DNA of 64,000 bases from Psammoneis japonica (GCA_008632985.1 QPGO01000191.1:62001-126000), one strand, 5' to 3'; positions 9,608 through 55,308 are shown, numbered from the stretch's first letter. The notes: generated from the sequence alone by a model not told the origin. Program-made: numbers and translations.

Positions 9608-10048
9608 GACTTGTAGATGTTCTAATGAGAAAAATATAAATAAGTCTTAAACCGAATTATGTTCTCGTACTTCGTAGGTACTGTACAGGAACAGTATAGC
9701 TACTTGGCGCGCAATATTCTCTTTTTGATGGTTTGCCACGTTGCGTTGTCTTGACAAGCTTATAACTTATAAGAGTGGGACATTATTCTCTAGGTACATT
9801 GGCATGACTCTAGAGATCCCTGCCACCACGCAGAGTCCCAACTCTTTGTCCTTGCACGGGCTTTCCGACACGAGCAAAGTTTCCTAGCTGGACATCTCTC
9901 AGCTTCTCGACTTTACAGAGAGGCCCTATTGACACATTATCCTTTGCCCTTTGCTGCCGTTTCCAATGCATCTTCAGTGGCATCTTGAAAATAATCCTGA
10001 ATGCTTTTCGTTTTTTGTGGCTATGATCGCTCAAACTCATGTGCGAGC

Positions 10049-22276: not shown

Positions 22277-22748
22277 AGTCGAAGCTCGCGTGTCCGCGCA
22301 AGCTCCGAGTGCCTTCCCAACGTGTCGACTGGATGTCCACTCCAGATCGATGCCTCAGGCAGAATGCAAGTAGATGGAATCTGCTTGCGAGTGGTGACGA
22401 GCATTTGGTCTTTCACAAAAGTGCCAGTGACCAAATCACAAGCTGCCTAGACTGAATCTGCTGAATGCACCCAAACAGAGGTTGATCCGCAGGTTTGCAC
22501 TGGAGACTGGTGCAAACTTCAGGGCCAACCACATTCACAACAATCATCCAAATGCTGCTGAACCAATCTGTGGTTGGTCCAACATCTGTGCGAAGCCTGT
22601 GATCTCCAAAGCACCGCCTGTGATCCCCAAAGCATTCGGCTTGAGAATCAAGTCGACGTGGCGCGAAAAGAATTTCAACAAGAATTCCGATTGATGGAAG
22701 CACAGACACAACAGAGAATCTGGGTTGGTGGACAGACGAACCACGACT
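22277..22748 (-). repeat. 3' LTR of element A
   Basis: Colinear with 28069-28540; termini AGTCG...CGACT. Confidence 0.93.
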
Positions 22749-22894
22749 CTCCCTCTCATTCACAGATTCCAGCAACCAACAAGAAAATCACAAACGAGAA
22801 AGCTCACACAATTGGTGCAAGTTCAGAGCAAAGCTCCCACATCTTGACCGAGCCACAACACATGACAAACAAAGGAAGCGATGCTTCCAAAGTG

Positions 22895-23695
22895 CTGCCA
22901 CCCTTGGACCTTCAACCGGTTGTTCTCGAAGAGCTCTCGAGTCAAAGGCTTGGTGAGACAATCGGTGAGTTGCTCGGCCGATTCCACCTTGATCGCATTG
23001 AACTCATCACAATGCAACCAGAACCAATGCCACTTGATGAGAAAATGCTTGGTGCGATTGGTGATGCGGTGGTTGGCAGCCAGGTGGTGGGCGCCTTGAT
23101 TGTCTTCGAACATGCGTGCACGAACCGAAGTCCTGAGATCTTGGGAGATGTCTGGGGTAAAGACGATCTCAAGGAGCAGGTTCTTCAAAGGTGGGAGAGT
23201 CCAAAGAGCACAGGAGGCGGCTTGACACTCGGCTTTGAGGGTGGAGCAGGAAACAGCTGACTGGAGCTGCGATTTCCACACCAAAGGACATCCACTGAGA
23301 GTTGTGATGCATCCGGTGCGAGACCTCACAGAATTTGGGTCAGAATCTGCTTCGCAGCAATGGAGACCAGCAAAATCAGCATTGACCCATAAATCAAGAT
23401 CCAAACAACCGGTTGGAGATGGCAGCATCCCCTGATCATGCGTCCTTTTCAAGCAGCGGACCAGAGTCTTGACGGCGGTTGCGCGCGACTGTTTTGGGTT
23501 GGAATTGAAGCGTGCAACCTGACTGACGGTGAGGGAAATGTCAGGACGGGTGTTGGTGGACAAGCACAGGAGCATTCCAACGATGGAGGGATGGCTCCAT
23601 TCCTCCTGCATGGGATCTCCGTCCACATCAGTGCCAAGGGCTTGGGACGCCGCAGGGAGCAAGTTCGGTTTGCTGTCAACCAAGCCGGTGGCCAA
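22895..23695 (-). pseudogene. Element A RT C-terminus and RNase H
   Basis: SIVGMLLCLSTNTRPDI, NADFAG, SRTGC, WKSQLQ, FEDNQGA, TKHF, DCLTK; ends GW then CAG (inferred former TAG). Confidence 0.9.
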
Positions 23696-26605
23696 CCGTC
23701 CCGTCACCTCTACTTTCTGTTGCTGGCGCTCTCAAGGCGGCGTTCACGAGTCCCAAGGAGACAAAGGAAGTGGTTGAAGAGCACACCTTCCTGGTCATTT
23801 GGGACTCAGGAGCAAGCACATCGGTCTCACCTTGCAAGGACGACTTCATCGGGCCTCTCAAGAAACCACCTGTCACTGTCCGGCTCCAAGGTGTCGCAAA
23901 GGGCCTCCATGTGGCAGGTGTTGGACACGTCGCTTGGTCTTTTGTTGATGTTGCTGGGGTGCCTCGGACCCTGAAGGTTCCGGCCTGCTGCGTCCCCAAG
24001 TCCAAGGCTCGTCTCTTGAGCACAACCAGTCTCTTGCAGATGTGCTTGGATGAGTCTGTCGAACTGCTGTCGGACCGTGCCATCCTCAGTGGATCCAAGA
24101 ATCGCGAACAAGGACACAGGCGAGGTGTTGAAGTGTTGATTGAACCTTCAACTAACCCACCAGTTGGATGGGCCTGCGCGAATCAAGCAAGTCAACAAAT
24201 TTGTGAGGAGTTTCATTTGACGTTGTCGACGATTGTGGAACACAATCACAATGTCTCACCTGCTGAAAAGGAGCCACTGCATTGGCACTTTCGTCTCGGG
24301 CATCTGAGCTTTCGAAAGGTGCAATTTTTGATGCGTGCGGGAGTTCTGTCCCACTCCGAGGGCACCCGTTGTTTGCATGAACGCGCTTGTTGCATCGATC
24401 GTCCGCCCCTTTGTGCCGCACGCCAATGTGGAAAACAAAAACGCCGTCCCAGCCCCGGAAAGACTTCTCGTGTCGTCAAGGATCGAGCTGGAGCCTTGAA
24501 GAAGGATCAACTGTTCCCCGGTCAACGAGTTTCGGTTGATCATTTTGTTTGTTCCACTCGTGGTCGTCTGAAACATGCTTTTGGAAAGGAGAGCATAAAA
24601 CATCAGTGTTTGGGCGGAGCAATCTTTGTGGACCATGCATCCGGTTGTGTCAACGTTCAACATCAAACTCACCTCAATGCCCATGAAACTTTGACGGCCA
24701 AGAACGCATTTGAGGCTCATTGTCGTGATTGTGGTGTCATTCCCCAAGAATGTCTGAGCGACAATGGAAAGGCATTCATGTCGGCTAATTTCAGGGTTCA
24801 CTTGGAATCTTTTGCTCAAGTTTCAAAGTGCGCCGGTGCAGGAGCTCACCATCACAATGGGGTTTGTGAACGAGCAATGCACGCCGCGATGTCGATCGCA
24901 AGAAGTGTGATGTTGCACGCGGCGATCCATTGGCCTGACGTTGCGGACGCTGCTCTTTGGCCTTTGGCTGTGGACCACGCTGTTGTGCTTCACAACGCGA
25001 TGCCAGACCCATCTGCGGGTCTGAGTCCACAGGATGTGTTCACCCAGATGCGCAACCCTCACTCTCGGTTCCAGGATTGTCATGTTTGGGGGTGCCCTGT
25101 TTGCGTTCTTGACAAAGCTCTCGCCGATGGAAACAATGGCAATCTTTCGTGCTGTGGAGTCATTGCGTGGAAATTGTGTGGGACAGCACCAAGACAAGTC
25201 TGTCTGTCTGTCCTCAGTGAATTTTAACTTTGCGAAAAATGGATTTGACTGTTTTCTGATCAGGTGCATTTTTCTTCAACACATTTGCAAAAACACACCT
25301 GACCCGACAACAGTCAAGTCTGTTTTTGCACAAATTGTGTGAACATGACAGTTTCAGTGCAAAAACGTGTGGATTCTACAGGCGTCCTTGATTGTTTTAT
25401 GCTCTCTATGTCACGGGTCATTTTCAAAAGATTCCTGTTGAAACTGCCAAAGTGGAAACCCCGCGCGAGTCGGCATGTCTGTGTGGGACTCAGCACCGAG
25501 CATGCCTCATCAGTCCCGCCAGTCTTGAGTCTTGAAACGGGAGCCATCACTCCACAATTCCATGTCGTTTTTGATGATTGGTTTGCGACGGTTCCTGCCG
25601 ATGCCAGCTCGTCACCTGCCATTGGGTCTCCGGAATGGACGTCTCTTTTCGGAGACAGTGTGTGTCAACATGCTGTGGATGATGAAGAGCAGGCTGATGT
25701 CGACATCCGTCAAGAACACCCAGAATGTGAGCGCCGATCCAAGGAAATCCGTGAAACCGTCACCCGCCGGTTGCCTCCCAAACCCTCACAGGTCCCTCCT
25801 CCGGCTGCTCAGGCACCAGCATCTTCTTCCGAGGCCCCCTCTCATCCTGTTGTGGAACCCCCGGTCCCTGAGGTGGAGTCTGTGCCTCCACTGGAGTCTC
25901 CCACTGAACCCGTGGCTTCAGACTCGCCTCAGAGGGAGAGAGCACCCGCTGCCAACTCAAACACCCCACCAAGTCCTCAGAGGGAGCCTCCCACCCCTCG
26001 AAGTCTTTCTTCGGATGTCTGTCAAGAGAGGGAGTCACCACCTGTGGCTCCACCCAGTGCACAATGCCCCTCTCCAACCCCAGTTCATCGCTCAACCCGG
26101 ACTCGCGCTGTGCCCCAGCGGTTTGGACACGATGGATCTCAGGGACATGGATGCTTGTCTCACTTCATTGATTTCCATCATGCACACAAGTTTGACCACG
26201 GTTGCAACACACCCATGACTGCTCCTGCCGTGTGCAAGGCGTCGGTGTGCAAAGTCAAGGATCCGGACACGCTGTCGTGGGATGAGGCCATGTGCTCTTC
26301 CGATCACGACAAGTGGTTGAAAGCGGCTGAGATCGAGATTGCAGCACTTGTCCATCAAGGAACGTGGGTCGAGGCACCCACATCCGATGCTCAAACCAAG
26401 TTCCTTCCCGGCACTTGGGCATTTCGTCGCAAGCGATCACCTTCAGGCGAGATCAAGAAGTGCAAGGCTCGCCACTGTTGTCACGGCGATCTGCAGGAAG
26501 GAAGTCTGTTTGACACTTGTGCACCGGTTGTAGCCTGGAGCACGGTTCGAGCATTTTTGGCATTGAGTCTTGTTCTTGGATGGCATGTGGCATCCGCCGA
26601 TTTCC
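23696..26605 (+). pseudogene. Element A protease, integrase and RT N-terminus, inverted relative to the rest of the element
   Basis: IWDSGAS, WHFRLGH, C..C, VSVD, FVDHASG, SDNG, NGVCER, WGCPVCVLD, PQFHVVFDDWF, DPDTLSWDEAM, GTWAFRRKR, APVVAWSTVR. Confidence 0.9.
25134..25440. mobile_element. 307-bp MITE inserted in the element A integrase
   Basis: Splits LDKALADG / KLPKWKPR; imperfect TIRs caatggcaatcttt and aaagattcctgttg; possible 2-bp AA TSD. Confidence 0.75.
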
Positions 26606-27800
26606 AGGTTCTTGGATGCAAGGCATCGTTTTGCGTCCATCTTAGACTTGTGCGCTGTCTCAACAAGTGCTTCGCTCAAATTCTCTTTCACAGTGCGAAG
26701 GGCGTGCTTGAACTGCTGACCGTTTTCGCCATCCCCTCCAGCTTCCAGGCAAGCGTTGACCAAGGCAAGCGTCAGCTTGTGGTCGCACTGACCCGCAACA
26801 TCTAACTCTTGGGCCGCAGTCTTGAACTTGGACAGGAGCTGGGAGAGATCCTGACCGGCGAACTGGGAGGGCTTGAGTTCCTCTAGCTGCTTTTCGAGCT
26901 GCTTGAAGCGTTCGATGGACGTGCTCTGAAGGATCACGACGAGAGCCATCCAGACTTTCGGAAAGCAATCCGACTCTTCCGTCTCCAGATCCAGCTGCAC
27001 GGCCAGGCTAGCCTCCAAGGAGTTCTTGAGAAACTCAGTGGCGTCCCTGTCATTGGATGAATCGCAGGAGTCATGCTTGGCGAGTTGAGGTGCGACAAGA
27101 CGGGTGACGCTCGATTTGGAATGCCGAGGATGTCCTTCAATGCAAGACGTCACGGAAGTTGAGTCCTCGGGGTCCTGCAGGCAAGTTGCCGCATCCAAAC
27201 CGCAGTCCTTGAGATGCTTCATCACGTTCTTCTCAAAGGTTGCAAGATCTCCCTTCTCATCAAACTTGGTCGAAAGTCCGGCAACGCAGCAGGCCTTGCT
27301 CTTCTGGGCAGAAGAAACATGGTGGGAGCGACACTGATTTGGTGACATTGGACTGGAGTTGGGAGTTTCCAATCCGGACCAGTCAGCCTTGGGTTTCCCA
27401 CCGGTCCAAGCAACTTTCTCAGTGGAACCAATGGAGATAATCCCCCCCCATCTCAGGAGCCTTGGGTTTGCAGACTTTCGTCTTCGGCATCGCCGCGGCT
27501 GCCATGGCAGCCATGGCCTGAACAGTGCGACGCTCGTCTTCCGTCATGCCAGAGCCTGCAGCGGGCTCGTCATCATCATCGTCCGAGTCGTCATCCGAAT
27601 CGTCCGGGCAAAGTTCCAAGGGCGGAACAGGCTCGTCGTCTGGGTCGTTAGGGTCCTGAGGTGGTGGATTATCCCCCGGTGGAGGTTGATCCTCAGGAGG
27701 CTGATCCTCGAACACTTCGGGGTCGTCAGCCATGTCCGACAGCGCGCTTGAAGCTGTCGAGTCGGACCAATCGTCTGGGACGTTCTCAATCAAAGAGTGC
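26606..27800 (-). pseudogene. Element A gag region (frameshifted, truncated by the inversion)
   Basis: Acidic/Pro-rich N-part, MGG...WTGGKP, HLKDCGLDA..CLQDP, LKPSQFAGQD; lies directly downstream of the 5' LTR. Confidence 0.75.
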
Positions 27801-28068
27801 GAGCTCGGAGAACTCTCTTGGGTCTCAGGAGGGCCATGGGGTGGAGCAGGGCCTGAGATGGTGCATGTGCAAAATCAACAATGAACCTTCTGGCGGAACC
27901 AGCCATTCAGCTGACGGAGTCAGTCGCAGTGCTTGACATCAAGAGCGCGGAGCGCAGTTGATGAGGAGTGCTGACGGTGTCAGAGCCATTGATGGGGTTG
28001 CTCTGGTTTGGGCGTCCCCAACCGGAAGCGTGGAACATGTTAAGTTGCCCCAATTGGGCGAACTGGCC

Positions 28069-28540
28069 AGTCGAAGCTCGCGTGTCCGCGCAAGCTCCGA
28101 GTGCCTTCCCAACGTGTCGACTGGATGTCCACTCCAGATCGACACCTCAGGCAGAATGCAAGTAGATGGAATCTACTTACGAGCAGCAACGAGCATTTGG
28201 TCTTTCACAAAAGTGCTGGTGACCAAATTACAAGCTGCCTAGACTGAATCTGCTGAATGCACCCAAACAGAGGTTGATCTGCAGGTTTGTGCTAGAGACT
28301 GGTGCAAACTTCAGGGTCAACCACGTTCACAACAATCATCCAAACACTGCTGAACCAATCTATGGTTGGTCCAACATCTGTGCAAAGCCCATGATCTCCA
28401 AAGCACCGCCTGTGATCCCCAAAGCATTCGGCTTGAGAATCAAGTCAACGTGGCGCGAAAAGAATTTCAACAAGAATTCCGACTGACAGAAGTGCAGACA
28501 CAACAGAGAATCTGGGTCGGTGGACAGACGAACCACGACT
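28069..28540 (-). repeat. 5' LTR of element A
   Basis: Colinear with 22277-22748. Confidence 0.93.
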
Positions 28541-30899
28541 GGGACACTTCTTGGAAAAGGACACATGGCAAAATCAAGCCAGCACTTTCATGATGTTCTC
28601 ACCTTGATGCCTGCTTCTTTTGGTTGAGTTGACAGTCATCTTAGCGTTTTTGGTGTTCCTTTCATCAACATTGTTTTCTTTGTCTGCTTCACCCTGACAT
28701 CCATTCACTGCCCCTGCCATGAAGGACTCTGCCACTTCTTTGTTCTTTGGCTCAAGTGTTCCTGCTGGCAGCAATGTCATTGGCATTGGGGTGCACTGTG
28801 CCATGCATTGCAATGTGATGGTGCAATCCCATTGTCAGCATTGTCCTGTTGTTGCTGCTTTTCACCCTGCAATGCAACCACATTTGCTGTTCTTTCATTG
28901 ACATGGCCAATTGGCTGGTCTCACAACACACCAGTCACTGCTGTGTCACCCAGTTCTTGGCTTGAGTGAGACAGCAGAAGAAGCTGCTGGAGCAGGATGA
29001 GACCCCCCGTCAGGCATTGCCAGGTTCATCTGCAACACAAGTGCTTCTCTCCCAGACCTGCAGTCCAACATTTGCTCCCATCTCTACCAAACTGCAGAAG
29101 CTGTTGGAGCAGGAGACCCGCCACTGTCCATGCCTCTGTCAGACCTAGAGATGATGGCCAGGGCCAGGCCCATGTCTGCAACATGCAGAAAAATGCTGCT
29201 CCCACCAGAACTGCAGTCCAAGACACCCCATTTTCTGTGAAAGGTGATGACAACCCATTTTGGTGCTACCCAGAGCTCTTGAAATGCTGCCACAAGGTGA
29301 TCTGCAGTGGGTTTGCACAAAGGGATGACAATTGGGTGCACGTTGCAGGTGAACACAGAATGTCCAGCTGGCTGGTGCAGACAGGTCAGTTGTGAAAAAG
29401 TGCGCAATTCAGCCTGACTGGCACCTCTCTGCACTGGTTGTGACATGCAAAAACACCACACATTGACAACAGCCCAGCTGGCTGGACATGGACAAAGGCA
29501 CAAGAAGCAGAGGGGGCATGCTCAGGCTCTGCTGCAGATGGGGGGATCCTCCACCAAGCCAACCCAGGGGCAACAACCAGAACATTGAGAGATGGCAGAT
29601 GCTGTTGCTGAATTCCCTCATTTGGCTGAGGAAGAGGAAGTGCCTGCAGATCCCTTGCAGCACTGAAGACCACCCACCAGATTTCTCAAACTGTGAAAGG
29701 GGTGCCAGCAAAACATTTTTCAGAAAGTGTGCCAGCAAACAAATCTTGGCATCAGGCACTGTGTTTCATGATGGCACAGGCTGCAAGAGTGGCCCTTCAG
29801 ACAAGGATGCCCACCTGCAGCTGCAGGCAGCTCAGCTTGCCACAAGCCCCCCAGATCAGAAGTGCAGCCAGCTGCCAAATGTTCTCAGACAGATTGCTGA
29901 AGAGAAGAGAGATCTTGCTTGGCAAGAAAGGCAGAGAGAAGTCAGGTGGGTTTGATGAGATTGAGAAGTTGAAGGCAAGGATCAAAAACTTGCATGCTGG
30001 AAAGAAACAAGGCAAGAGCAGAGCACAAGCAGGAGCAACAAAAGCCAGAAATTAGAGTCAGCAGGTCTTCTTCACTCTGACTCTGACATGTGATGCCCAA
30101 CCAAAAGGTGCAACTCTGATGGCTTTGGAGGAAACTGGGAAGGTTGTGGACATTGCCCCATCTTCACCACCACAGTTGCAGTGCCAACAGCTGTTCAGCA
30201 AATCAGATCACAGAGGACAGGCAACAGACAAGACTCCATCTGGAAAACATTCTCTCCACCAAAAAACAAAGACAAAGTTGATGCTGATTTTCTGGCTTCT
30301 GGAGGAGAATGCACTTTGCTTGTTTTCCAGTCAATGAACCTGGCTGACACAGGTGCTGATGCCAACTTGCATGTGTTTGACACAAAAAGAGTCAAAACGC
30401 TGCACAAAGATGCTGTGAAACATTTGGAGCTGATGGGAGCATTGATCTTTGTCGAGGGGTGACATCACATGTTCCAAGTGGCAAGTTGTTGGTGGAAATT
30501 GCCAGAAGAAGAAATCAAGCAAAGTTCACCTTGGGGTCATTTTGTGACCAAAGAACCAAGTGAAAGAATCCCAGTTGCAGCAAGATGCCTCAGAGCACAA
30601 GTGCAAAGATGATGACTCTCAAGGCACAGCTGTCTTCTGAGCCTTTTCTGAGGGCCAACCTGTGATTGTGATTGTCTCCCTCAAAGGAGTTCAGCATTTG
30701 TTGATGCAACATGTCCCATCTGCCACTGCAGAATGTTGCAAGTGTGTTCGAGTTCTGCCATTTTTTCAAAAGCCATGTGTGCTTCTTTGTTGGAAACAAA
30801 GCAAGACAGCTGCAGCATTTCAGCAACCTTTGTTGCCACTTCAGGTTTCTCCAGTCATTGGTGAGAGGGACTCTGTTGCATCTGCTGCTGGGCTGGGGT

Positions 30900-33250
30900 G
30901 TCACATGGCTGATGCAACACCACAGGATGACAAACCAAGGCAGCCACCTCTGTGTCAGTGAGCTGGCCAGAACCCTCAGCTGACAACTGCTTGGTTTGTC
31001 CATTGGCTGTTAAAGTCCACCCCTGGTGGGTCATGGCAGATTGGCTGGAGTCCTTGGCTGACAGCTGCATGGTCAGTTTGCAGCACTTGGGGTGTCCATC
31101 CATTTTCCAGATAAAAATTCAAGTCTGTCTGCTGCTGCTCTTGGGTGATGTTGGGCCAAAACACACCAGATGAACACCAAGGCAATCACAGTGAATGCTC
31201 TTAAAGTCTGTCACATGGCCAAAACAGCACCACAGGCCAAACCAAGATGACCATGGTCACAGTGAGCTGGACAGAACCCTCAGCTGACAACTGCTTGGTT
31301 TCTTGTTGCATTTGGGGTGTCATCTGTGGTCCATGTGGAAAATGCAAGTTTCTGTCTGCTGCCAGACTGGTGTGATGTTGGACCAAAACAGTGCAAGATG
31401 AGCCAAGCCAGTCACAACAATGCCATTGAAGCCCACCCCTGGGTCATTGCAAATTGGCTGGAGTCCTTGGCTGACAGCTGCATGGTCAGTTTGCAGCACT
31501 TGGGGTGTCCATCCATTGTCCAGATGAAAAATTCAAGTCTGTCTGCTGCTGCTCTTGGGTGATGTTGGGCCAAAACAACACCAGATGAACACTGAGGCAA
31601 CCACAGTGAATGCTTTGAAAGTCTGTCACATGGCCAAAACAGCACCACAGGCCAAACCAAGATGACCATCATGAATGCTCTTAAAGCCCACCTGGTTTCT
31701 TTGTTGTTGCACTCGGGGTGTCTGTCCATGGCCCATGTGGAAAATGCAAGTCTCTGTCTGCTGCCAGACTGGTGTGATGTTGGGCTAAAACAACACAAGA
31801 CAAGACAAGCCAGCCACAACAATGCCATCAAAGTCCACTCCTGGGCCATGGCAAATTGGCTGGAGTCCTTGGCTGACAGCTGCATGGTCAGTTTGCAGCA
31901 CTTGGGTTGTCCATCCATTGTTCAGACAAAAAAAATCAAGTCTGTCTGCTGCTGTTTTTGGGTGATGTTGGGGCAAAGTAACTCCAGAGGGATGAACCAA
32001 GGCGGCCGCAATGAAAGCTCTCTCATCCGCCCCTGGGTCACAGGCAGCAAGTTGGTCAGAACTCTCAGCTGACAACAGTTTGACTTCTTTGTTGCACTTG
32101 GGGTGTCTGTTGTTCAGATGGAAAAAGCAAGCCTGTCTCTGCTGCCAGACTGGGGTGAAGCTGGGCCAAAACAACACAAGATGAAACAAGCCAACCACCA
32201 GCCACTCTTTAAAGTCCACCTGCAGGTCACTGTGAGTTGGCTGGAGTCTTCTGCTGACAACCTGGTGCATTGTCCAGGCAGAAAAATTGAGTCTGTTTGA
32301 TGCCACCCTTCTTGTGTGACCTTGATCCAAAACAATGCCAGATGGCATGAGCCTTGCTGACCACAACAAATGCTCTTAAAGTTGAGTGAAAAAGCTGGAA
32401 CCCTTGGCTGACAACTGCGTGGCCAGTTTGGTGCACTTGGGGCATCCATCCATTGCCCGGATGGAAAAATCAAGTCTGACTGCTGATTGCCTTTGGCAAT
32501 GTTGGGCCAAAATGACACCAGATGACCCAAGGCAACCACAATGAATGCTCTCAAAGTTGGCCCCAGGAGCACAATGAGTTGGCTGGAACCCTCAGCTGAC
32601 AACTGTTTGGTTTCTTTGTTGCACTTGGGGTGTCCATCCATTGTCAAGGTGGAAAATTCAAGCACATCTCTGCTTCCAGCCTGGAGCAATGTTGTGCCAA
32701 AACAACTCCAGATGGGCCAAGACAGCCACAACAAATGCTCTCAAAGTCTGCCCCTGGATCACAATGAGTTGAGTGGAGCCCTCTGCTGACAACTGTTTGG
32801 TTTGTTTGTCATGCTTGAGGAATCTGTCCATTGTCCCAACAGAAAAATCATGCCAGCTGTCTCCTGCTGGCTGCCATCATTGGGTGATTTTGACCCCCCA
32901 AGCAACACCAGATGAACCTTGCCAATGACAACAAATGCTCTTAAAGTCCAGCCCAGGCACACAGCAAGAAGGCCAGAACCCTTGGCTGACAACTGCATGG
33001 CCAGTTGGTTCTTGCACTTGGGGTGTCCATCCATTGTCCAGATGGAAAAATCAAGTCAGTCTGCTGATGGCCTTGGGTGTTGTCGGACCAAAACAACACC
33101 AGGTGAACCAAGCCAACTGCAATGAATGCTCTTGAAGTCCACCCCTTGGTCACTGGGAGTTGACCAGAACCCTCAGCTGACAACTGTTTGGTTGTTTGGT
33201 TGCACACAGGGTGTCAATCAATTTGCCACCAGATGGAAATTTCCAGCCTG
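30900..33250 (-). repeat. Degenerate tandem array with about 190-bp period, about 12 units, possibly once coding
   Basis: ccct(c/t)(a/g)gctgaca(a/g)ctg recurs near 30971, 31050, 31276, 31462, 31865, 32061, 32250, 32400, 32588, 32780, 32978 and 33168; minus-strand peptide repeat WTMDGHPKCNKETKQLSAEGS. Confidence 0.85.
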
Positions 33251-34911
33251 TCTGATGTTGCTGTTGGCATGTTGCTGGGAAACAAGGATGGAGATGGAGG
33301 TGGTGCAACACCAGATTTGCCAGTTGGAGATTCGCGTGGAGCAGCAGATGGAGCACCAGAAGTTTTGTCGCTGGGTGAAACACCTGGAGAGCTTCAGCAC
33401 TTGGTGCACCTCCAGAAACAGACAGCAGTGCAGCTCTGCTGAGGGAGCCAACAAAGGCACAAGTCCTGCATTTGATTGGCTGGGCTCATCAGATGGAGAG
33501 CTGGAGGGTGCAGCAGATGACATTGGTGTTGGCACATCACTGGGAACCAATGATGGAGATGAAGGCAGTGCAGTGCCAGATTTGCCAATTGGAGGTTAAC
33601 GTGGAGCAGCAGATGGAGTGCCAGAAGTTTTGTCACTGGGTGTTCACCCAGAGCTTCACTTGGCACACCTCCAGAAAAAGATGGTGCAGCTGCTGAGGGA
33701 GCCAACAAAGGCACAAGTTCTGCATTTGACTGGCTGGGCTCATCAGATGAAGAACCAGAGGGTGCAGCAGATGATGATGGTGTTGGCACATCACTGGGAA
33801 CCAAGGATGGAGATGAAAGCAGTGCAAGAACACCAGGTTTGCTGATTGGTGATTGACGTGGAACAGCAGATGGTGTGCCAGAAGAGTCATCACTGGGTGT
33901 TTTGCTTGGAGCTTGCCTGGCGCACCTCCAGAAGGAGATGATGTGGGTGCTCAGAGAGCCAACGAAGGCACAAGTCCTGCACTCAATTGGCTGGACTTGT
34001 CAGATGGAGAACTGGAGGGCGCAACAGATGATGATGGAGTCGGCACATCACTGGGAACCATGGATGGAGACAAAGATGGCATGACAATGGATTTGACAGT
34101 TGGAGATGTGGAAACTGGGGACTTGAGAAGGTTTGTCAGTGGGGGCTTTGCTGGCCTGTTCCAGCTCCAGGTGCTCCGCGCGGGTTCGATTCCCATCATT
34201 TGGAAATTTGTGCATTTGGCGCAATTGACTTTTTCCAAATCCGTTTTTTGCCAAATCGAAGGGTAAGTGCGAGTAAATCTGGATGGAGGGCCACGTCATA
34301 ATTGGTGATTGGTTAAGACACATGGATCGAGTGGTGCTGCAGCGACACGCTCACAATCTGGTCAGGTTTGGGTTCGCATTGACAGTGTTGCTGCTTTCCA
34401 TTTAGACTTGAGGTGTCGTGCTTGTTCTTTCGTTGCATCGAGATTTATTCGCTTTGTCAGAGCCAAGACGAAAAAGACAGAGCGAAATGGTTTTGAATGC
34501 AATTCGTCATGGACGATTGTTTGTTGTGTTGTTTGCATGGAACGTGCAGCTGTAGAAACGGTGCTGAGCTGTGCGCGATGCGTCAGAATTCGGATTGATG
34601 CGCACGATGATGCGTCTCGTGTCGCTTGTTGTGACATCCACAAAAACAGCTTGCAATGGTGATGCTCGCAAAGACAGTCACTGTCCTCACATGTGCAATG
34701 GGTGTGAAGGGACTGCGGCATTGGGCGACATGCCCGAGCGTGTGCTCGACAATGTTGGTTGACATGAATGACACAGGACTGATCACCCTGATGTCGGGTG
34801 GCTGTGTAAACCTGTTGTCACAACACAGAGAAAGTGCAGCCATCATGACCATGCAGACTCACAGCTGTGTGTTCCTGGTGCGGGACCTTTGCACCCTTTC
34901 TCTGTCACAGG

Positions 34912-36456
34912 ATGGCAGCAGCGGCAGCACCAGCAGCAGCACTTGCGGCGTTGGCCGCGGCAGCTGACGTTGACGCAGTTTTGCAAGTTTGTGGTGTTGC
35001 TGACCAGAACGCAAGGGCGAGGTTGGTCTTCCATGAAGGGTCCACGACTTTGGAAAACATCGCAGTGATGGAGAGTGATCACGATGTGGAAGACATGGTG
35101 CAGAGGGCGTCTCGTCGCACGGTGGCCGACGGATGTGTGACTCTTGGGACTGTTCAGATCAAGAACTTGCAGGCGCTAGTGTGGTGGTGCCAGGATTTGC
35201 TCAAACAGAATCAGCCATTGGTTGTGGCAGACTTTAATGTGGCAGCTGTGGCTGCGGCCCGGAATGGCAGGCGTGTCGAAAAGGAGCGCACAGATTCGGA
35301 CGCGTCGGCAAGCGGTCTCGTAAAGTTCAAGCCCGATGACTTCGATGTGTGCGAAGATGCTTTCTTGAATCTCTTGGCACAGAAATTTGGCGTGTTGAAA
35401 GAACCCCTTCGCTGTGTTGCAAGGACAATGCCAGCTCCGGCTGCATTCACGGATGCTCAACAACAGCGTGTGTGCGAGATGCCATTGAATGGCGCCGCAC
35501 ATGACGAGGACAACCGCAGCGTTTGCCGTGTGTTGAAGGAATGCTTGGTCGACACGGCAGGATGGGCATGGATCGAACCATTTGACGCAACAGAAGATGG
35601 ACGTGGAGCATTCAACGCATGGGTTGACCATTGCAATGGACAGGGCGAGTTGAGCAAGCACATCCATCTGGCTGCGGCAACTGTTGAAACCTTGTTTTAT
35701 AAAAAGGAAGGATCGCTCCCATTCGAAAAGTTCAATGAGAAACTTGCCAGTGCTTTTGCTGCTTTGAACAAATCACCGGACGACCGCAAATCTGAACGAC
35801 AGAAAGTTGACATTCTTCTAAAAGGGATCCGAACGGATGACACTCGTCTCATTGCAGCAACGGCTGTCATTGGCAGTCAGCACCCTCGTGACTTCGCGGG
35901 GGCATGTGCTCATTTCTCATCCGAAGTCTCTCGTTTGCATGCAGGTGCTCAGTTGGAAGCCTGGCGTTGCTCGAAGCGCAAGATTTCTGAAATGAGCCGT
36001 GGTGGCGGCGGTGGCCGCGGTTTTTATCGAGGTCGCGGTCACGGAGGAAGATTTGGACGTGGGGGTGGACGCGGACGTGGTGGTGGCCGTCAAGGCAGAG
36101 GTGGCGACCACACTACGATGATCAATGGAGTCGATGTATCCGACCCTGCAAGGAGCTTTAGCGCTCAAGAATGGGAAAAGTTGCAGCACAATGGAGGCAT
36201 GAGCTGCGTGTTCCAAGCTCGCGAACGAATGGGTCATGGACGCGGTGGTGGCCGTGGGTCTCCCGCAGGTCAACAAGAACGCGATGGGGGCGGCAGGCAT
36301 GCAGCTGAAGCCCAAGTCTGTCAAGATGGCCAAGGCCAAACCCAACAACAGGATCAGGAGCAAAGGAGTGGCGGGCGTGGTCGCGGTGCTGACCGGGATC
36401 GCGGTGGATGCAATGGACGCACCTTCGGTCGGGGAGCCCACAATGGTTCCACCTGA
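34912..36456 (+). pseudogene. Element B gag
   Basis: Long ORF with DGRGAF..W..HCNG, FEKF..KL and an RGG-rich C-terminus; only 2 Tyr. Confidence 0.85.
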
Positions 36457-39400
36457 CTCCTTGGGGTGGCAACAGCTGCTGGAGCATTGGCGCATTTGGT
36501 GCACTTGTCGTTTTTGCTTGTGTTGCTCTTCTTGCTGTTGACCAAACCCCACCCAACATCTCATTTCAAAGGAAAGGTGACAAAGAGGCACATTGCCATG
36601 ACATCAAAACGTGTGATCCGATCGACGAGTTCTGCACAGATGACAAATTTGACGACACCTGGGTTTGTCGCTCGAAATGAATGTGACACTCACGCGGACA
36701 CTTGTTGCGCTGGGGCGAACTGGAAGCTCATGGAGATGACAAATGAAGTGTGCGAGGTGCATCCATTTCTGGACTCTTGCGAGCTGATCAAACAGATTCC
36801 TGTGGCACGTTGTTGCACCGCATGGACAGATCCGGAAACGACTCGTGAACATTTGCTGGTTGGTGATCAAATGCTCTGGTTTGGGACCGACATGGAACAC
36901 TCACTTTTGAATCCTAACCAACTCCGTGCGCACAACACACCCGCACACGACAACCCTTGCGACACCCGAAACGGATTTGGCATTGAAGCTGACGAAGCTT
37001 TCATCCCTTTCAATGCCACGGGGACAATTGTGTCTTTCAAGTCTCGTGTTCCGACGGATTGGGAAGCACAGAACTTGCCGGTTACACTGTTGACAGGTGA
37101 CGCATGGGATCCAGCACAGACAGACATGGGCTCACCGGAGTGCACTAGAGAGCAGGCGGAGATGCGCACTGTTCGATCATCAACCTCTGGCATGCGACAA
37201 GAACAGGTCTCGGAATTAAGGAGCGAGAAGGCAAGGTCCCAAGCAGCACGCTGGGGCGAGGTCGAAATGCAACTGTCGTCTGTGTCTCCTGTCTGTCAAC
37301 TTCAATCGTTTTGCGACAGGCTTGTCAGCTCAGTGAACATGGCTTGTACATGTCGCGACAACGTGGACAAGAGGCAGAGGGCAGTCAAAGATTTACACAG
37401 CAAGGATCGGCACTCGAAGGTTGATGCTGAAGAGCTGGCCCGAAAATGGAGCATCGGTTTGGAAATGGCAAAAGACACTCTCAATGTAACAACTCAGCGC
37501 GGTGTGCGAACGGCGACCCAGCCGATGTCACGAAGAGTGAGGGTGGATCATCTTGACTTGCATTGGAAGCGTCTGAAAGGAACATGGTTTGTGGACACTT
37601 TGACATCCAAGGTGAAGTCTTTGCTCGGCAACACGTGTGCCAATGTTTGCACTCAGGGCAAATTCGTGAAGGTTGTGCCAATGACCGCCAGGTCGGAGGC
37701 AGGTTTGTCTCTTGTTGAATTCACAGACGACGTGGGTGTGCCAGAATGTCTTATGTCGGACGGGGCAGGAGAGTTCACTGGAAGGAGCACCGAATTTGTG
37801 AGACATGCACGATGCATGAGAGCACAATTGAGAACATCAGAGCAGGGTCGGAAGAACCAGAACCAGGCAGCGGAGCGTGAAATTGGTTTCTTGGCCAAAT
37901 GTTGGTGGCTGCGGATGATGAAGAAGAAGGTGCCAAAGCGATCATGGGATTTTGGTCTTGTTTGCGAGTCGAAATTAGTGTCGCACATGGCAAGAGGCAG
38001 GGATGAGAGGACTGGATGTGAGGAGGTCACTGGGCAGACACCAGAGACAGGCGAGCATTTGGATTTTGGTTTCTGCAATGTGGTGTGGTGGTGGGACAGG
38101 CCCAACAAGCCGAGTGCAACTGACGATCCTCGAAGGCTTGGACGGTGGCTTGGTGTCTCACACAAAGTTGGCTCGGATGTGTGCCATTGGATCACCACGG
38201 AAAGCGGGAAGATTGTCTCCAAAACATCGGCCGAGCACGTGACACAGGCTGACAATGTGCAACCGGACATTCGTGTTGAGGTCGACAACTTTGATGAGCA
38301 GCTGGAGAAGCAATTGGATGACACTGGCTTTGTCTTAAAAGGCGATGAAGCTGTGCCCGCATTCATGTTGGACGATCTTGCAATTGACGGCAACCTCGGT
38401 GTGGAACATGAGGGCGGCATCATGCCAGAGGACAAGGAACATGGCAACATGCCATCACCCGACGAGCGACCAGACGACGACGACAAGCAGGCAATCGATC
38501 AACACCTGGGAATGGAACTCATGTTTGACATCGGAACCAACAGTGAGCGACGTGGTGTTGTAACGAAACGTGCAAGAGGACAGGATGGGCGTCCAATTGG
38601 GACTCGGCATCAAAACCCATTGTTTGACACTCGCGAGTGCAAAGTGGAATGTGCCGACGGAACCACAGACAAGCACACAGCCAATGTCATTGCCGAGAAC
38701 ATGTTTGCTCAGGTCGACAGCGAGGGCAACCAGCACTCTATCTCACACGAGATGCAGGACCACGAGAGGAGTGACGATGCGGTGTCGATTGCTGACGGCA
38801 CCGTACAAACCGCTGATGGGAAGGAGAAGAAGAAGATCACAACAAAAGGATGGAAGTTGTTGGTCGGATGGAAGGATGGTGGCTCATCTTGGGTCAAACT
38901 TAAAGATCTAAAGGACTCTGACCCCATTGAAGTTGCTGAGCATGCTGTTGCGAACAGGTTGACGGAGGAACCTGCTTTTGCTTGGTGGGTCACACATGTC
39001 CTGCATGAACGGAATCGCATCATGTCCAAGGTCAAGAAGAAGTGCTGGCGCACGACTCACAAGTTTGGGATCTGATCACCCAAGTCCACGGAGGACGCTT
39101 TGCGGATTGATCAGGAAACGGGGACAGATCATTGGGCTCGTGCAATCAATGAGGAGATGGCAAAGGTGAAGGTGGCATGGTGCGAGCACGAAGCTGAAAC
39201 CCCTCAAGTCGTCCGGGAAGGCAAGGGCACAACTTTGCATGGTCATCAGGAGATCAGGTGCCACATGGCATTCGACATTAAAATGGATTTCACCAGAAAG
39301 GCAAGGTTTGTAGCTGGCGGACACACGACAGAGGCCCCGGCATCGATCACTTGCTCTGGCGTGGTTTCCAGAGACAGCGTGCGACTTGGATTCTTGTTGG

Positions 39401-40788
39401 CAGCCTTGAATGGCATCGATGTTGCGGCGATTGATCTGGAGAATGCTTGTCTCAATGCACCGTGCGCAGAAAAGACATGGTTTGAAGGCAGAAAGGAATG
39501 CGGCGAGTGCAAAGGAAAGGTGCTTGTTGTCACTTGGGCATTGCATGGCTTGAAGAGCTCGGGACACTCTTGGAGGTCTGCACTGTCATCGGTCTTACGT
39601 GACTTGGGCTTCGAATCGACGAGAGCAGACCCAGATGTCTGCTTGCGTGCGGCGACTCGTGAGGATGGGCACGAGCATTGTGAAATGCTTTTGGTTTGTG
39701 TCGATGATGTGCCAATCATTTCCCATCAAGGGAAGTCTGTTGTTGCTGCAACAGGTGAACACCACACCGTGAAGCCCGGCAGCGAAGGAGAACCAGAAGT
39801 TTGTCTTGGAGCTAACGTTGAGAAGGTTCAGACTCAGGATGGGCGCACAATCTGGGCGAGTTCACCGAGGTCACATGTTGGATCGGCGATTGAGACTGTG
39901 GAAGGCCCATTGGATGAAGACGGCAATGGAGAGGTTCTGAAGAACAGTGCAAAGGATCCACTGCCCCCGAAGTGCAAACCGGAACTGGACGTGACGGACG
40001 AGTTAGGCCCCGACTTGGTGGACAGGCGTTTACAGCTGACAGGGATTTGTCGTTGGGCGATCGAGTTGGGTCGTATCAACATCTTGCATGAGGTTTCAAT
40101 CCTGTCTCAACATCAAGCTAATCCAAGGAAAGGACATCTTGAGGCATTGCACCATGTGTTTGCGCATGTGAAGAAACACCAGAACGTCGGACGCATCGGA
40201 TTTGATCCAAAGGAACCGGTGATTGATGAATCTATTTTCAATTCGAACGCAGACTGGACCGAGTTTTACGGGGACGTCGAGGAGGAACTGCCGCCACGGG
40301 CACCGAAGCCTCGTGGTAATCCGGCAAACATCCGTGCATTTGTTGACGCTAACCATGCAGGGAATGTTGTCACTCGCAGGTCGCATGGCGGGATTCTGAC
40401 ATTCGTCAACAATGCGCCAGTGGTGTGGTTCAGCAAGCGGCAGAACACGGTGGAATCGGCAACGTTTGGAAGTGAATTGGTTGCAATGCGGATTTGTAAG
40501 GAATTGATTGTTGCTTTGCATTGCAAGCTTTGTGTGTTTGGGGTTCCCCTTGAAGGACCGGCAAGTGTCTTTTGTGACAATCGCGGTGTTGCAAAGAATG
40601 CAAGTGCACCCGAGTCGGTTTTGCACAAGAAGCACAATGCCATCAACTGCCATGTTGCACGAGAAGTGGTCGCAGCGGGAATTATTCGTGTTGGCAAGGA
40701 GGACACGGAAACGAACTTGGCCGATCTGCTTGCGAAGGTGGTCACAGGAGAGCGGCGATGGAAGCTTTGCTCGTGCATTTTTTGGCAA
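36457..40788 (+). pseudogene. Element B pol (same frame as gag; premature TGA at 39073-39075)
   Basis: ECDTHADTCCAG, HSLLNPNQLR, SDGAGE, AEREI, GRWLGVSH, FDIKMDFTRKARFVAGGH, ALHGLKSSG, LVCVDD, FVDANHAG, SATFGSE, FCDN, NLADLL; ends IFW then CAA (inferred former TAA). Confidence 0.93.
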
Positions 40789-43700
40789 TGTCCCGACACC
40801 AAGGCCAGGCACCTGTGGCTCGCACCCACACATCGTGGCCTCCCAAGCCAGCACATCTGGTGGTTTAATTTGGGTTCTTGTGGTTTGCCTCTCTGTGAGA
40901 GGATGTCACATGTTCAGACGAATCGGCATTGTCATTGCCGTTTCGCGGGGACCGAGTAAATCTGGATGGAGGGCCACGTTGCAATTGGTGATTGGTTGAG
41001 ACACATGGATCGAGTGGTGCTGCAGCGACACGCTCACAATCTAATCAGGTTTAGGCTCGCATTGACAGTGTCACTGCTTTCCATTTAGACTCAAGGCATC
41101 GTGCTTGTTCTTTCGTTGCATCGAGATTCATTCGAGTGTGCACTTTACATGCATTTTCGGGTGTACACTCACCTTTCTATTTTCGAAACGATCAAAATTG
41201 AATGAGTCAATTGTGCTAAACTGCACAGAAAATTGGCCTCTCGCGTGATGAAAAGCAGAGCACCTGGAGCTGGAACAGGCCTGCTTGGAGCTTCACTCAG
41301 GACAGTGCCTGAAACAGATGATGGAGCCACTGATGGAGATGAAGAAGGCACAAGTCCTGCAAGAGCAGAGCAACATGCTCTGATCAGTCCTGTTGGAGAC
41401 GTGGAGGGTGTTGAAGAAAGCACACCATGCACCACGCACATCTGCCACAGCAGCGGCAAAGCATGGACAGAATCCTGGTCATGAGAAGGGCACCACCACA
41501 ATCTGCAAAAAGCAAAAGCTCAGGACATGGCTTTCTTTGGCACTTGGGGGGCAGGTGCATCAACAACCACAAACAATTCCCTCACTGCAGAAAGCATGTT
41601 GGCACTCTGAAGACACAGAGGAGAGAACACAATGGCGCTGGCCAGTGCACAAAGTGAGAACAGAGCACGATCTGCCTCAAAACATTCACCCATCACCCAC
41701 AAAGAAGATGACAAAGACAAGTTTTCTGCTCTGTTGTTGAAGGCTGTGGGGCATTGGCAACACCCTCATTGCCACATCGCCGCCCCCACACAACAACTCA
41801 CACTTGTCAGGTCAACGTCGTGCAAAGAGGAAATGCTCAGATGTGTTGATGGCCAAAGAAGTCAAAACAGCTTTCACAACCAACACTTTGTCTTTCTCAC
41901 ATTTGCGTCCACCCAAACCCAGCAAGGCAGAGAAAGAATGAGGGCTGCAGCTCTGGAGATCATGTGCAGGTGCAATTGATGTGACCACATTAACGTCATT
42001 GGCTGATGTGAAGGCGGGGGCTTGCAGACACAACCCCTCAAAACTCATTGCAGCAGGTTGGGGTTGCAAAAGCAGCAAAAGCACCACACTCCAACCACCT
42101 CTGCAACAAAGCACAATGATGCTCTTTTGTTCAAGAGCAGCAACAGAGCCTTGCAGCCAAAAAACACACACACATGGCTCACCCCCCACCCACCAGCATT
42201 GTTTTTGTTTGTTTGTCATGTTGACTCCCTGGCATCAGCAGCTGTTGTGTCAATCTTGTGCCAGCCTTTCTGAGCACTCCGCAGCTGTGTTTTCCACACC
42301 TCATCCTTGGAGCAATTGCTCTCATTCTGTGACTTTTTGGCACTGGTTGGGAGTTTCTCATCATCTGCAGGGGGCATCAGCCTCTTCAAAAAATGATGCT
42401 CAGTTGGGACATTCATCATCAGCCACATGCATGCACCAGCACTCAGCATGGCATTGTCATGTTTGATTTTGGCACTGGCAAAAACTTCCAAAAATTGCAA
42501 TTTTGGTTGTCACAGAGGCTCTGCATGTGCACGGCTGGGGCACGCAACACATGTCTTTTCACACTGTGTTTGAGCATCAGCACTCAACATTCAAACAAAT
42601 GCTCACATCCACCCATGGAGCATCTTCAATCTCCTGGCCAAACCAATGGTGTGTCCTGCCTGGGTTTGCTCTGAGCCCATGATTGAAGGGATGTGTGGTG
42701 TGGGAACATGGCCTGGGGTGCAGGGAGCATGCAGTGACTGCACATGTTGTCAGCGTTGGGCTGGCGCTGACACCCATGCTCTTGTGTCAGGCCTCTCCAC
42801 TGAAGAGCACAGCAGCCACATGCTGCTGGTTGCAGGCCCTGCCATCAGCTGCTGCTGCTGGCCACTCTGCCCTCTGCCACAGCCACTCTCTGGTTGCAAA
42901 AAGGGCCTTTTGCTCAGATCAGCAGAAGCAGCCCACCTGGGTGCACAGGTCATGGCTGGGTTTGGGCTGCCAGATGCCTGCTGTTTTGTCATGAACACAG
43001 CAGCCACATGCTGGTCACAGGCCCTGCCATCACCTGCTGCCAGCTCCTTTGACACAGTTGCTCTCTCTGGTGGTCACAGAGAGAGTGTTTTTTGCTCAGA
43101 TCAGCACAAGCAGCCTGCCCGGATGTGCAGGCCCTGGCTGGGTTTGCGCCACTGGACTCTTGCTGTTTCATCATGATGGTTGTGCCATTTCTCTTGGTGG
43201 TTGGCTGCACAGATGCAAATCTCCTGACTCATCATGGAGCACTGTTCTGAGTTTGGCAGAGGCTGTGCTGGCACTTGGAAGAACAACAAAGAGGGGCCAA
43301 AATGATGCAGGATCAACAGGGATGTTGCCTGAATCAGGCCAGCTGGAAGTCACATTGGTGGTGCTAAAAATCAAAAGAGCTGGACTTTGTTGTGGGTGTG
43401 GAGGAGATTTTTTGCACTCTGCTGTCAGCAGCCCAGTGGAGCACACTTGTCTTTCTCTGCCCTTGGCAGTGAAACAGCAAGTGAGTGCTCATGCAGTTTC
43501 ACTCTGTGATCAACATTGGAAGGACTCACCAAGCTTGCTTTTCTCTCTCTACAAAACTGCAAAAAGCACATCATTGACAAGTTCACATTGAGATTGTCAG
43601 CACCAATGACAACCCAGCAGCCATGCATGGCTTTGCACTTGGCTTGTGATGTCCACTGAGCAAACTGCTGGTGTCTTCTTCTGCTGTGCTGACCTCTCCT

Positions 43701-44572
43701 GTGCTCTGCTGGGATTCACCCAATGCTCCCTCTGGGCCTGTCTCTTTGCTTTGGGCTTTCTGCTTTGTTGCTTGGAGTGCTTGTTGCCAGGTTGACAATG
43801 ATCAAGTGCGGAGCGGGATTCAATCCTACAGTGCTGCGATGATGGCATTCTCAAGACTTGCTGACTAAAGAAATTCTGGTCCGTGACATCTTGCAAGGAT
43901 TGCCTCAACGTCCTTTTTGGAACCCGAGACCGAGCACCGAGCATGGAAAAGTGGTGTCAAGGAAAGTTGGGCAGTTTCTTTCGTGTCACATGATTCAGAC
44001 CTCGGACGAAGACATGCCCGATGAAAATTCACCTTTGCTTGCTTCTGATGCGGGTGCATGGATCAACCTCTTATAGAAAACGAGGACACCAAGAGGACAG
44101 AGAGAGGGGGGTCTATTTCAGTAAGGCAAATTAGTAGTTGACATCATAAGTTTCAGTGTTGCAAAGCTGTACTTGCTTTCGAACAAATGCTGTCTTGCTT
44201 CAGGGTTCACTCGTAACATTGGACCTGCTATCGTTTCCTTGAGCCGCAGTGACGTCCATGCACCTACAAAAGCAAACGGACATTTGCGAAACCCTCCCGT
44301 ATTGCATAATATCTTGATGGACACTAAACTAGATATTTCAGTAGCATCATTCATTTCTTCCAATTGACCAATCAAAACTACGCAGGGTACAATACTATAA
44401 TAAATCTCTAGTTCTCAGAACTCGCTAAATTCAATTCGCTCAAGGCGGGACTGTTCTACAATTCCAAGTATTGTGCTGTGTATTCCAACTAGCTAAAGCA
44501 GTGAAGGTCCATGATTAATATTGCTCTATACATTTTCCGTTGTGACTAACCAGTAATATGTGTCCCGAGATG

Positions 44573-52695: not shown

Positions 52696-52852
52696 GATGT
52701 GACTTGTTGATTGAAAAGAGAGTTGCAACAAGACTTGCTAACCGTAAGAATGTTGTTCTTGCTGTGCTGTTGAGGTGGACTTATGTGCGTCGAACTTCGA
52801 TTTCGAAAAAATGTGGGCCGTTCGTCCCAGTTCTTCCATCGTACGGTACGTA

Positions 52853-55063: not shown

Positions 55064-55308
55064 TACAGTCTGCCGCGCGTATTAGGCCACCTACTGTACG
55101 GTAGGTACGAATCCCTACATACCACATTTTCCACGTCACTTCCTGGTACTCAGGCCACCGGGTTCCAAAAAGCCCGAGCGATCGAGAAAAACACCGCCCT
55201 CTTGCCTGTTGCTGCCGCCATTAGCACTCGTTGTGGTGTTGCTGTAATTGTTTTGCTTGTTGGAACCATTCATGGGTCGTTACAACTACATTACACACTT
55301 GTAAAATT

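Follow-up and report, generated by a model that had tools for sequence, protein, structure and literature searches.

What kind of process removes most TA dinucleotides from a retrotransposon, and does it act on the element's RNA, on its cDNA or on chromosomal DNA after integration? The question is raised by a 64,000-nucleotide stretch of the diatom Psammoneis japonica (GCA_008632985.1, QPGO01000191.1:62001-126000; one strand, called the window here, with positions counted from its first letter), which contains copia B, a dead Ty1/copia-type long terminal repeat (LTR) retrotransposon of this diatom. An initial annotation of the window had pointed out that the two LTRs of copia B differ mostly at dinucleotides compatible with an ancestral TA, and had placed the loss of TA in chromosomal DNA after integration. 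Our analysis makes it quite probable that copia B inserted once and that a TpA-directed DNA process then hypermutated the repeats of the island in which the element lies.

The LTR pairs of copia B and copia A

The copia B LTRs were returned by the repeat finder as a gap-free pair of 182 nt with 92% identity. A base-by-base comparison gave 15 mismatches in 182 positions, all 15 of them transitions, and 13 of the 15 lie at TA, TG or CA sites: at four doublets one copy has TG where its partner has CA, and five further sites have TA in one copy against TG or CA in the other (Table 1). TA is retained in both LTRs at two sites, and ten of ten CpGs stand at equal offsets in both. The differences listed in the initial annotation (four doublets, five TA-versus-TG/CA sites, two others and the ten CpGs) were exact in this comparison. 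When 15 transitions were placed at random, none of 20,000 trials gave at least four TG/CA doublets or at least 13 TA-compatible differences.

A model of independent TA loss fits the pair with p=0.69 per copy, the site classes being TA in both copies (two sites), lost in one copy (five) and lost oppositely in both (four). A model in which the doublets stem from CG gives P=1.7e-4, as no CpG was lost in one copy only; a CG origin of the doublets is rejected because it needs sites with one copy mutated, and none is present. Restoring TA at the triple change at LTR offsets 27-30 yields TTATAA, which is TATA-like, and a TA at offset 176 brings back the terminal inverted repeat of the LTR. An ancestral TA is also supported at 34360/34361, where all six other contigs of the public sequencing run X1 have A, as the 3' LTR does. 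Further LTR copies were not found in the window, where self-BLAST returned just the two copia B LTRs, and a degenerate pattern made from the conserved LTR core had 0 matches in metagenomes.

Because AGTG is found on both flanks and three contigs of the public sequencing run X1 connect 34264 directly with 41134, copia B goes back to one insertion event that duplicated 4 bp of its target, and both LTRs stem from that event, as the initial annotation had presumed. A 4-bp target duplication is also described for the diatom copia element Blackbeard (PMC2806351).

A replicate is provided by copia A, a second element of the window, from which the LTR pair and the amino-acid composition were taken as evidence. 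It belongs to a lineage separate from copia B, since tblastn with four copia B relatives matches copia B alone in the window. The copia A LTRs show 31 mismatches, 30 of which are transitions, falling into nine TG/CA doublets, five TA-versus-TG/CA sites, five CpG-type sites (CG against TG or CA) and three others. The fitted TA loss is p=0.81 per copy, compared with a CpG loss of about 0.1, and a CG origin of the doublets has P=1.1e-5. The process acted after integration, on the indirect evidence that two LTR pairs diverged independently at TA sites and that copia B is a single insertion.

Per copy, 69-81% of the TA sites were lost in the two pairs, in which the divergence at non-TA, non-CpG sites is 0.7-1.2%; because this divergence is so low, TA loss ran at about 200 times the background rate or more. 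For copia B the Kimura two-parameter distance (K2P) between the LTRs falls from 0.090 at all sites to 0.012 without TA-type sites, and dating by LTR divergence does overestimate the age, as had been suggested. The corresponding copia A values are 0.070 for all sites, 0.018 without TA-type sites and 0.0067 when CpG sites are left out as well.

TA loss in coding sequence and across the repeats

The direction of change can be read from the single gag-pol frame of copia B. Its Pfam RVT_2 match (residues 69-218 of the frame from 39076) has E=1.8e-10 and 41.3 bits against a cut-off of 31.6, and the reverse transcriptase part, in the last third of the frame, has 1044 database relatives with a top identity of 69%. 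Long relatives align with copia B without interruption from 37579 to 40785, beginning upstream of the reverse transcriptase. A Pfam integrase match was not found in the 872-aa frame of the element, and a purine-rich GCGGGGAC precedes the 3' LTR.

For the alignment, 59 relatives were used (P0001-P0060 without P0020), and a column was counted as a Tyr column if at least 80% of them have Tyr. At the 14 conserved Tyr columns copia B has Cys (TGY) in eight, His (CAY) in five and Tyr in one; the catalytic box YVDD has become CVDD, and EYYEM has become EHCEM. Altogether 43 residues are replaced at 306 conserved columns, and single steps of TA>TG (12) and TA>CA (12) account for most of the 30 replacements that one transition can explain, the remaining six being CpG transitions; other single transitions number 0, three replacements need a transversion and ten need more than one change. 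By comparison with the relatives, these replacements, with their 12:12 ratio and 0 other transitions, show that the ancestral dinucleotide inside copia B was TA and that the process is TpA-specific and hits both strands equally. The claim of an ancestral TA rather than CG is thereby borne out at 13 of the 14 conserved Tyr codons, now TGY or CAY, and for the LTR doublets by inference from the CG model. The further claim that CpGs stay intact stands for both LTRs and fails for the interior, where some CpGs have been lost. One of the two stop codons in the frame, TGA at 39073-39075, lies opposite Arg in four of four relatives and reads as a CGA>TGA CpG transition, no product of TA loss, because the relatives have CGA/Arg there.

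In composition, the 2037 codons of copia B include 3 for Tyr, 68 for Cys and 82 for His, and Tyr makes up 2.5-4.8% among the 120 relatives listed, with one exception. This exception, P0020, is the lone hypermutated protein among these 120; among 150 representatives, five of which have Tyr below 1.5%, four carry a clear signature (P0314, P0320, P0327 and P0386). In P0020 and these four relatives of the copia reverse transcriptase Tyr amounts to 0-0.4%, and Cys and His are raised. Each of them has its own choice of Cys or His at the conserved Tyr columns. Since they show the Tyr>Cys/His pattern, the same process has left traces in other public assemblies. The two copia A frames have 0 Tyr in 1064 codons, compared with 1.5-3.6% in five host genes.

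Over 34270-41134 the stop codons on the two strands number 24/23 for TAA, 10/12 for TAG and 142/122 for TGA, and within 7.4 kb at copia B there are 43 open frames of at least 80 aa on both strands. Long open frames thus persist in this dead element because TA loss deletes TAA and TAG.

The loss of TA extends well beyond copia B, whose own observed/expected ratios (o/e) are 0.13 for TA, 1.47 for TG, 1.57 for CA and 0.86 for CG. Each 1-kb window from 21001 to 44000 has a TA o/e of 0.00-0.21, and further low values occur at 53-55 kb and 62-64 kb, compared with mostly 0.3-0.75 outside the repeat stretches (0.23 at 4001). Borders of the TA-poor stretches lie at 20.9, 43.8-44.1, 53.0-55.0 and 61.9 kb. 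The edges against genes are sharp, the TA count per 100 bp going from 16 (61800) to 0 (62000-62600) and from 0 (43000-43700) to 12 (44300); spacers without constraint beside the island retain 6-16 TA per 100 bp against 0 in the repeats. The process was thus confined to repeats. Host genes have long frames without interruption and a normal Tyr content. A diatom host is indicated by the TCP-1 epsilon gene (6884-8530), which shares 83-86% identity with proteins from Trieres, Attheya and further diatoms. Among the TA-poor sequences are also a terminal inverted repeat (TIR) element at 52850-55066, a miniature inverted-repeat transposable element (MITE) and a 257-bp satellite; because these are TA-poor as well, TA loss is not tied to reverse transcription. 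Together with the 12:12 ratio of TA>TG to TA>CA, this upholds the earlier placement of the process in chromosomal DNA on both strands, as opposed to RNA editing or reverse transcriptase error.

The flanking bases were compared between 123 TAs surviving in 26.8 kb of repeats and 1250 TAs in 35.6 kb of other DNA. Over-represented among the survivors are TTAA (3.8x), CTAA (2.8x) and CTAG (1.7x), and under-represented are ATAT (0 of 123 vs 6.6%), ATAC (0.11x) and GTAC (0.26x). By 3' neighbour, survival relative to the non-repeat density is 0.26 for TAA, 0.17 for TAG, 0.08 for TAC and 0.06 for TAT, a preference in rate for T-A-pyrimidine of about twofold. On the 5' side, mutated Tyr codons with a pyrimidine before TA became Cys or His in a ratio of 7:1, those with a purine in a ratio of 1:4 (Fisher P ~0.03, by hand), and all 24 sites gave 9:3 vs 3:9 (P=0.039), to which the genetic code contributes some bias. 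Strand-coherent tracts of the kind made by repeat-induced point mutation (RIP) were not found among the 24 ordered sites, which form 11 runs compared with 13 expected (by hand).

Table 1. Positions of copia B, its LTR differences and target, copia A and the repeat island within the window
Feature	Position	Strand	Basis or remark
5' LTR of copia B	34270..34451	+	182 nt; direct repeat D3 from repeat finder and base-by-base comparison
3' LTR of copia B	40953..41134	+	182 nt; repeat finder and base-by-base comparison
AGTG target-site duplication, left copy, 4 bp	34266..34269	.	sequence; empty-site joint 34264>41134
AGTG target-site duplication, right copy	41135..41138	.	sequence; empty-site contigs
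Single gag-pol frame of copia B	34849..40959	+	2037 codons; TGA breaks at 36454-36456 and 39073-39075
Copia-type reverse transcriptase, Pfam RVT_2	39280..39729	+	CVDD in place of YVDD, TGT at 39697-39699
Small TIR element (MITE), left half	34150..34269	.	interrupted by copia B; 30-nt inverted ends
Same MITE, right half	41135..41284	.	30-nt inverted ends; run X1 depth
TG/CA doublet 1, copia B LTRs	34297-8 / 40980-1		CA vs TG
TG/CA doublet 2, copia B LTRs	34389-90 / 41072-3		TG vs CA
TG/CA doublet 3, copia B LTRs	34409-10 / 41092-3		TG vs CA
TG/CA doublet 4, copia B LTRs	34414-5 / 41097-8		TG vs CA
TA-vs-TG/CA site 1, copia B LTRs	34299 / 40982		TA vs CA
TA-vs-TG/CA site 2, copia B LTRs	34315 / 40998		TA vs TG
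TA-vs-TG/CA site 3, copia B LTRs	34360 / 41043		TG vs TA
TA-vs-TG/CA site 4, copia B LTRs	34370 / 41053		TG vs TA
TA-vs-TG/CA site 5, copia B LTRs	34446 / 41129		TA vs CA
5' LTR of copia A	22273..22748	+	476 nt
3' LTR of copia A	28065..28540	+	476 nt
Repeat island, TA nearly absent, sharp edges	21001..43800	.	TA o/e 0.00-0.21 per kb; 1-kb and 100-bp profiles

The MITE that copia B interrupts has a length of about 270 bp (34150-34269 and 41135-41284), contains a tRNA-like GGTTCGATTCCC stretch, and its 30-nt inverted ends (34150-34179 and 41255-41284) are 93% alike. Run X1 covers it about ten times as deeply as copia B, so it is a high-copy element. The MITE itself sits inside the 257-bp tandem array, which occupies 33253-34105 with 3.2 copies (81% matches) and resumes at 41288. 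The copies of this array differ mostly by transitions, and 13 of its columns are TG/CA-mixed, for which an origin from TA or from CG is indistinguishable. A 402-bp tandem array with 2.4 copies lies at 31027-31988.

The TIR element at 52850-55066 is about 2.2 kb long and has 43-nt terminal inverted repeats (95% alike) with GTAC outside both ends; in its interior the TA o/e is 0.03-0.17 and CpGs are retained, and no Pfam family was found in the eight frames scanned. The repeats at 21001-22000, 29001-34000, 42001-44000 and 62001-64000 have a CG o/e of 0.01-0.17, a TA o/e of 0.00-0.09 and TG/CA values of 1.7-2.2, and 600 bp at 62000-62600 run without any TA or CG. Such repeats, poor in both CG and TA, are probably older ones after both processes. 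Outside the left edge of the island (20400-21000, beside the frame 19460-20521) the TA count per 100 bp is 2, 1, 0, 3, 1 and 1; this gradual fall may mean that the process leaked past the edge, or the stretch may be the outer end of a repeat. The gene-like region 10047-10764 contains diverged internal direct repeats (70-87% identity), and its TA content is normal.

Weighing the alternatives

Several observations count against the proposed history of copia B. Public run X1 contains 0.43 of the window's sampled words, and X2 and X3 contain next to nothing. At 37 of the 40 listed places (of 1141 variable ones) no contig has the window's letter, and 34360, 34361 and 40977 show another letter than the window's in every X1 contig. 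Run X1 thus seems not to contain this very copy, whose consensus may mix copies, the window being a scaffolded draft with a 280-N gap. In addition, the interior doublets 37085/6 and 38004/5 have one shared alternative state in all other contigs, so that a mutated master copy or shared ancestry is needed for them. As for the LTRs, TA at the four doublets is deduced and not observed in another LTR copy, two of the 15 differences (34361 G/A and 34373 T/C) lie outside TpA, and the context effect, although in the same direction, is weak when counted directly, adenines having been hit in 18 of 44 cases before a pyrimidine and in 15 of 58 before a purine (P=0.14). Finally, the analysis revealed neither an enzyme nor a modified base nor a new mutation.

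The alternative that fares best, although it is unlikely, is an artefact of assembly or sequencing, in which the consensus would have been polished with reads of other copies or a modified base at TpA would have been misread. The partial representation of the window in X1, the 37 places at which its letter has no contig and the gap in the draft all speak for it. A mixing of copies would, however, bring in CpG-type changes, as seen at 14 of the 40 listed places, where all other contigs have CG and the window has TG or CA, and transversions, which make up 159 of the 1141 variable places between X1 and the window; the LTR pair has none in 15 differences. The changes between X1 contigs and window also run either way, with A>G at 229 places, G>A at 274, C>T at 269 and T>C at 210 (15-26 per transversion), which indicates that the copies themselves are mutated and that the window is not merely misread. 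The Tyr>Cys/His pattern recurs in independent database proteins, and the phenomenon stands even if some letters come from the wrong copy.

Editing before integration, either A-to-I on RNA or deamination of cDNA, with the LTR differences brought in by later exchange between copies, is improbable. The 5' U preference of ADAR-type enzymes would suit the TA motif (Mettrop et al. 2026, 10.64898/2026.01.13.699255), and copies of the family do differ mostly by transitions. The copia B LTRs differ, however, although identical ones would be expected, because in the retroviral replication scheme a single template serves for the two LTRs of a provirus. The target duplication and the empty site speak for one insertion, editing of sense RNA would yield TA>TG alone and TA>CA is as frequent (12:12), and the TIR element, the MITE and the satellite are TA-poor too. 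ADARs are generally considered a metazoan family, which further counts against RNA editing.

We give equally little credit to the view that nothing was targeted at all, and that a genome-wide TpA bias or GC-biased gene conversion became visible in neutrally evolving repeats only. Host genes and spacers are indeed somewhat TA-poor, with the o/e of mostly 0.3-0.75 given above, and gene conversion is plausible among about 30 copies. Against this stand the adjoining unconstrained spacers with 6-16 TA per 100 bp where the repeats have 0, and the ratio of about 200 or more between TA loss and ordinary LTR divergence; moreover, gene conversion is unable to leave the two LTRs with TG and CA, respectively, at one site.

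Least probable is decay of methylated CpG, with the doublets arising from CG through C>T on opposite strands in the two LTRs: this decay is present in the genome, as seen from the five CG-versus-TG/CA sites of the copia A LTRs, the six CpG steps in the copia B interior and the low CG of the older repeats, but none of the ten CpGs of the copia B LTRs was lost singly (the P values for both pairs are given above, and the initial annotation's argument against CpG decay as the cause of the LTR differences is upheld by them), it is unable to yield the five TA-versus-TG/CA sites, and its main casualties would have to be conserved Tyr codons, which have no CG.

The proposed process and its relation to known systems

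In the history that we consider quite probable, copia B would have inserted once into a MITE lying in a satellite array. Each LTR would then have had about 70% of its TpA changed, independently of the other, and the interior as large a share or a larger one; a hit on A of the top strand would give TpG, and a hit on A (or T) of the other strand CpA. The same process would have stripped TA from all repeats of the 21-44 kb island and would end within about 100-200 bp of the adjacent genes. By analogy we infer the same kind of targeted A:T>G:C hypermutation as in the integrated viral DNA of Bigelowiella natans, and as its chemistry the deamination of adenine in DNA to inosine, which is read as G, by an enzyme resembling tRNA deaminases; the roughly twofold T-A-pyrimidine preference is compatible with this chemistry. 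A deaminase was not found among the open reading frames of the window that were scanned. Candidates for the targeting signal are repeat homology, small RNA or chromatin.

In mutation-accumulation lines of Bigelowiella natans, 230 of 231 new mutations in an integrated giant-virus region and a virophage region are reported to be A>G or T>C, and the GC-biased new mutations all lie at TpA (Mettrop et al. 2026, bioRxiv 10.64898/2026.01.13.699255). The rate is given as about 6e-7 per site and generation, in 11 of the 15 lines, with new mutations at about 1000 times the background in some lines only; reverse transcriptase and DDE transposase domains are over-represented in TpA-poor coding sequences, and an ADAT2-like DNA adenine deaminase was proposed, not shown (10.64898/2026.01.13.699255). 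As in copia B, nearly all changes are A>G or T>C and lie at TpA, which becomes TpG or CpA depending on the strand, and as in the window the target is chromosomal DNA, with foreign or selfish DNA alone affected and normal rates alongside.

The two cases differ in host, a diatom (stramenopile) here and a chlorarachniophyte (rhizarian) there, and the words diatom, stramenopile and retrotransposon are absent from the main text of the preprint. The targets here are LTR retrotransposons, a TIR element, a MITE and satellites, whereas in Bigelowiella they are a single-copy viral insert; the TA o/e here (0.00-0.21) is near saturation, compared with 0.45 in the Bigelowiella viral region; and the evidence here comes from LTR pairs and conserved codons, there from new mutations in cultured lines. 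The effect of flanking bases, about twofold for T-A-pyrimidine, is a further difference from what the preprint's text presents. The literature searched contained no account of TA>TG/CA hypermutation in diatoms, the signature appearing in the Bigelowiella preprint alone, and a term search in Maumus et al. 2009 (PMC2806351) gave no mention of such mutations. The comparison supports TpA hypermutation in diatom transposons as a new host and new targets for a kind of process described once before.

RIP of ascomycete fungi resembles the process in that transitions arise in DNA after integration, are aimed at repeats with sharp borders, kill transposons and inflate LTR divergence. It consists of C:G>T:A changes, mostly at CpA, which create TpA and lower the GC content (RIPCAL). 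Fungal RIP was rejected as its direction is opposite: here TpA is destroyed, CpA and TpG are made and GC goes up. RIP also makes stop codons, whereas here TAA and TAG are removed and long open frames remain, and it has strand-coherent tracts, none of which were seen here.

Decay of methylated CpG in diatom transposable elements is similar in that transitions at a self-complementary pyrimidine-purine dinucleotide end in TG or CA, and it co-occurs with TA loss in the older repeats of the window. It acts at CG, however, and in the copia B LTRs ten CpGs are unaffected beside a loss of about 70% of the TAs. Diatom transposable elements are CpG-methylated (Hoguin et al. 2023, PMC9998398), and diatom DNMT4 enzymes are described as relatives of the RIP enzyme RID (PMC9998398). 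These enzymes could have a bearing on the CpG-poor repeats, and not on TA loss.

APOBEC3 edits minus-strand cDNA (G>A) and ADAR edits RNA (A>G), both before integration and on one strand. The process resembles these systems as a transition hypermutation of the deaminase type that affects retroelements and depends on a dinucleotide context. Hyper-editing of the ADAR type was rejected, since identical LTRs and a one-sided spectrum would be expected, and the LTRs differ and the spectrum is symmetric (12:12).

A broader reading, which we hold only tentatively and regard as having rather less than an even chance, is that diatoms share Bigelowiella's TpA-directed DNA-editing defence, an old immune system possibly of the whole SAR group (stramenopiles, alveolates and Rhizaria). 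Taken together and with the same reserve, it would involve a DNA adenine deaminase that probably derives from tRNA deaminases and has a T-A-pyrimidine preference, that would find every class of selfish DNA (LTR and TIR elements, MITEs and satellites), and that would bring about near-complete TA loss while ordinary sites diverge by about 1%. Proteins would be inactivated via Tyr to Cys or His, with their frames left open.

If the proposed process is real, TA-directed hypermutation of invading DNA would be no peculiarity of one chlorarachniophyte and would operate in diatoms, major primary producers of the ocean, on ordinary transposons. Without masking of TA-derived sites, dating by LTR divergence in such genomes comes out about 4- to 10-fold too high, and false long open frames mislead gene callers and put Tyr-free 'proteins' into databases. 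The TA o/e, together with Tyr>Cys/His at conserved sites, offers a simple detector for the process in other genomes, and the diatom would provide a second, independent system in which to seek a naturally occurring enzyme for editing adenine (or thymine) in DNA.

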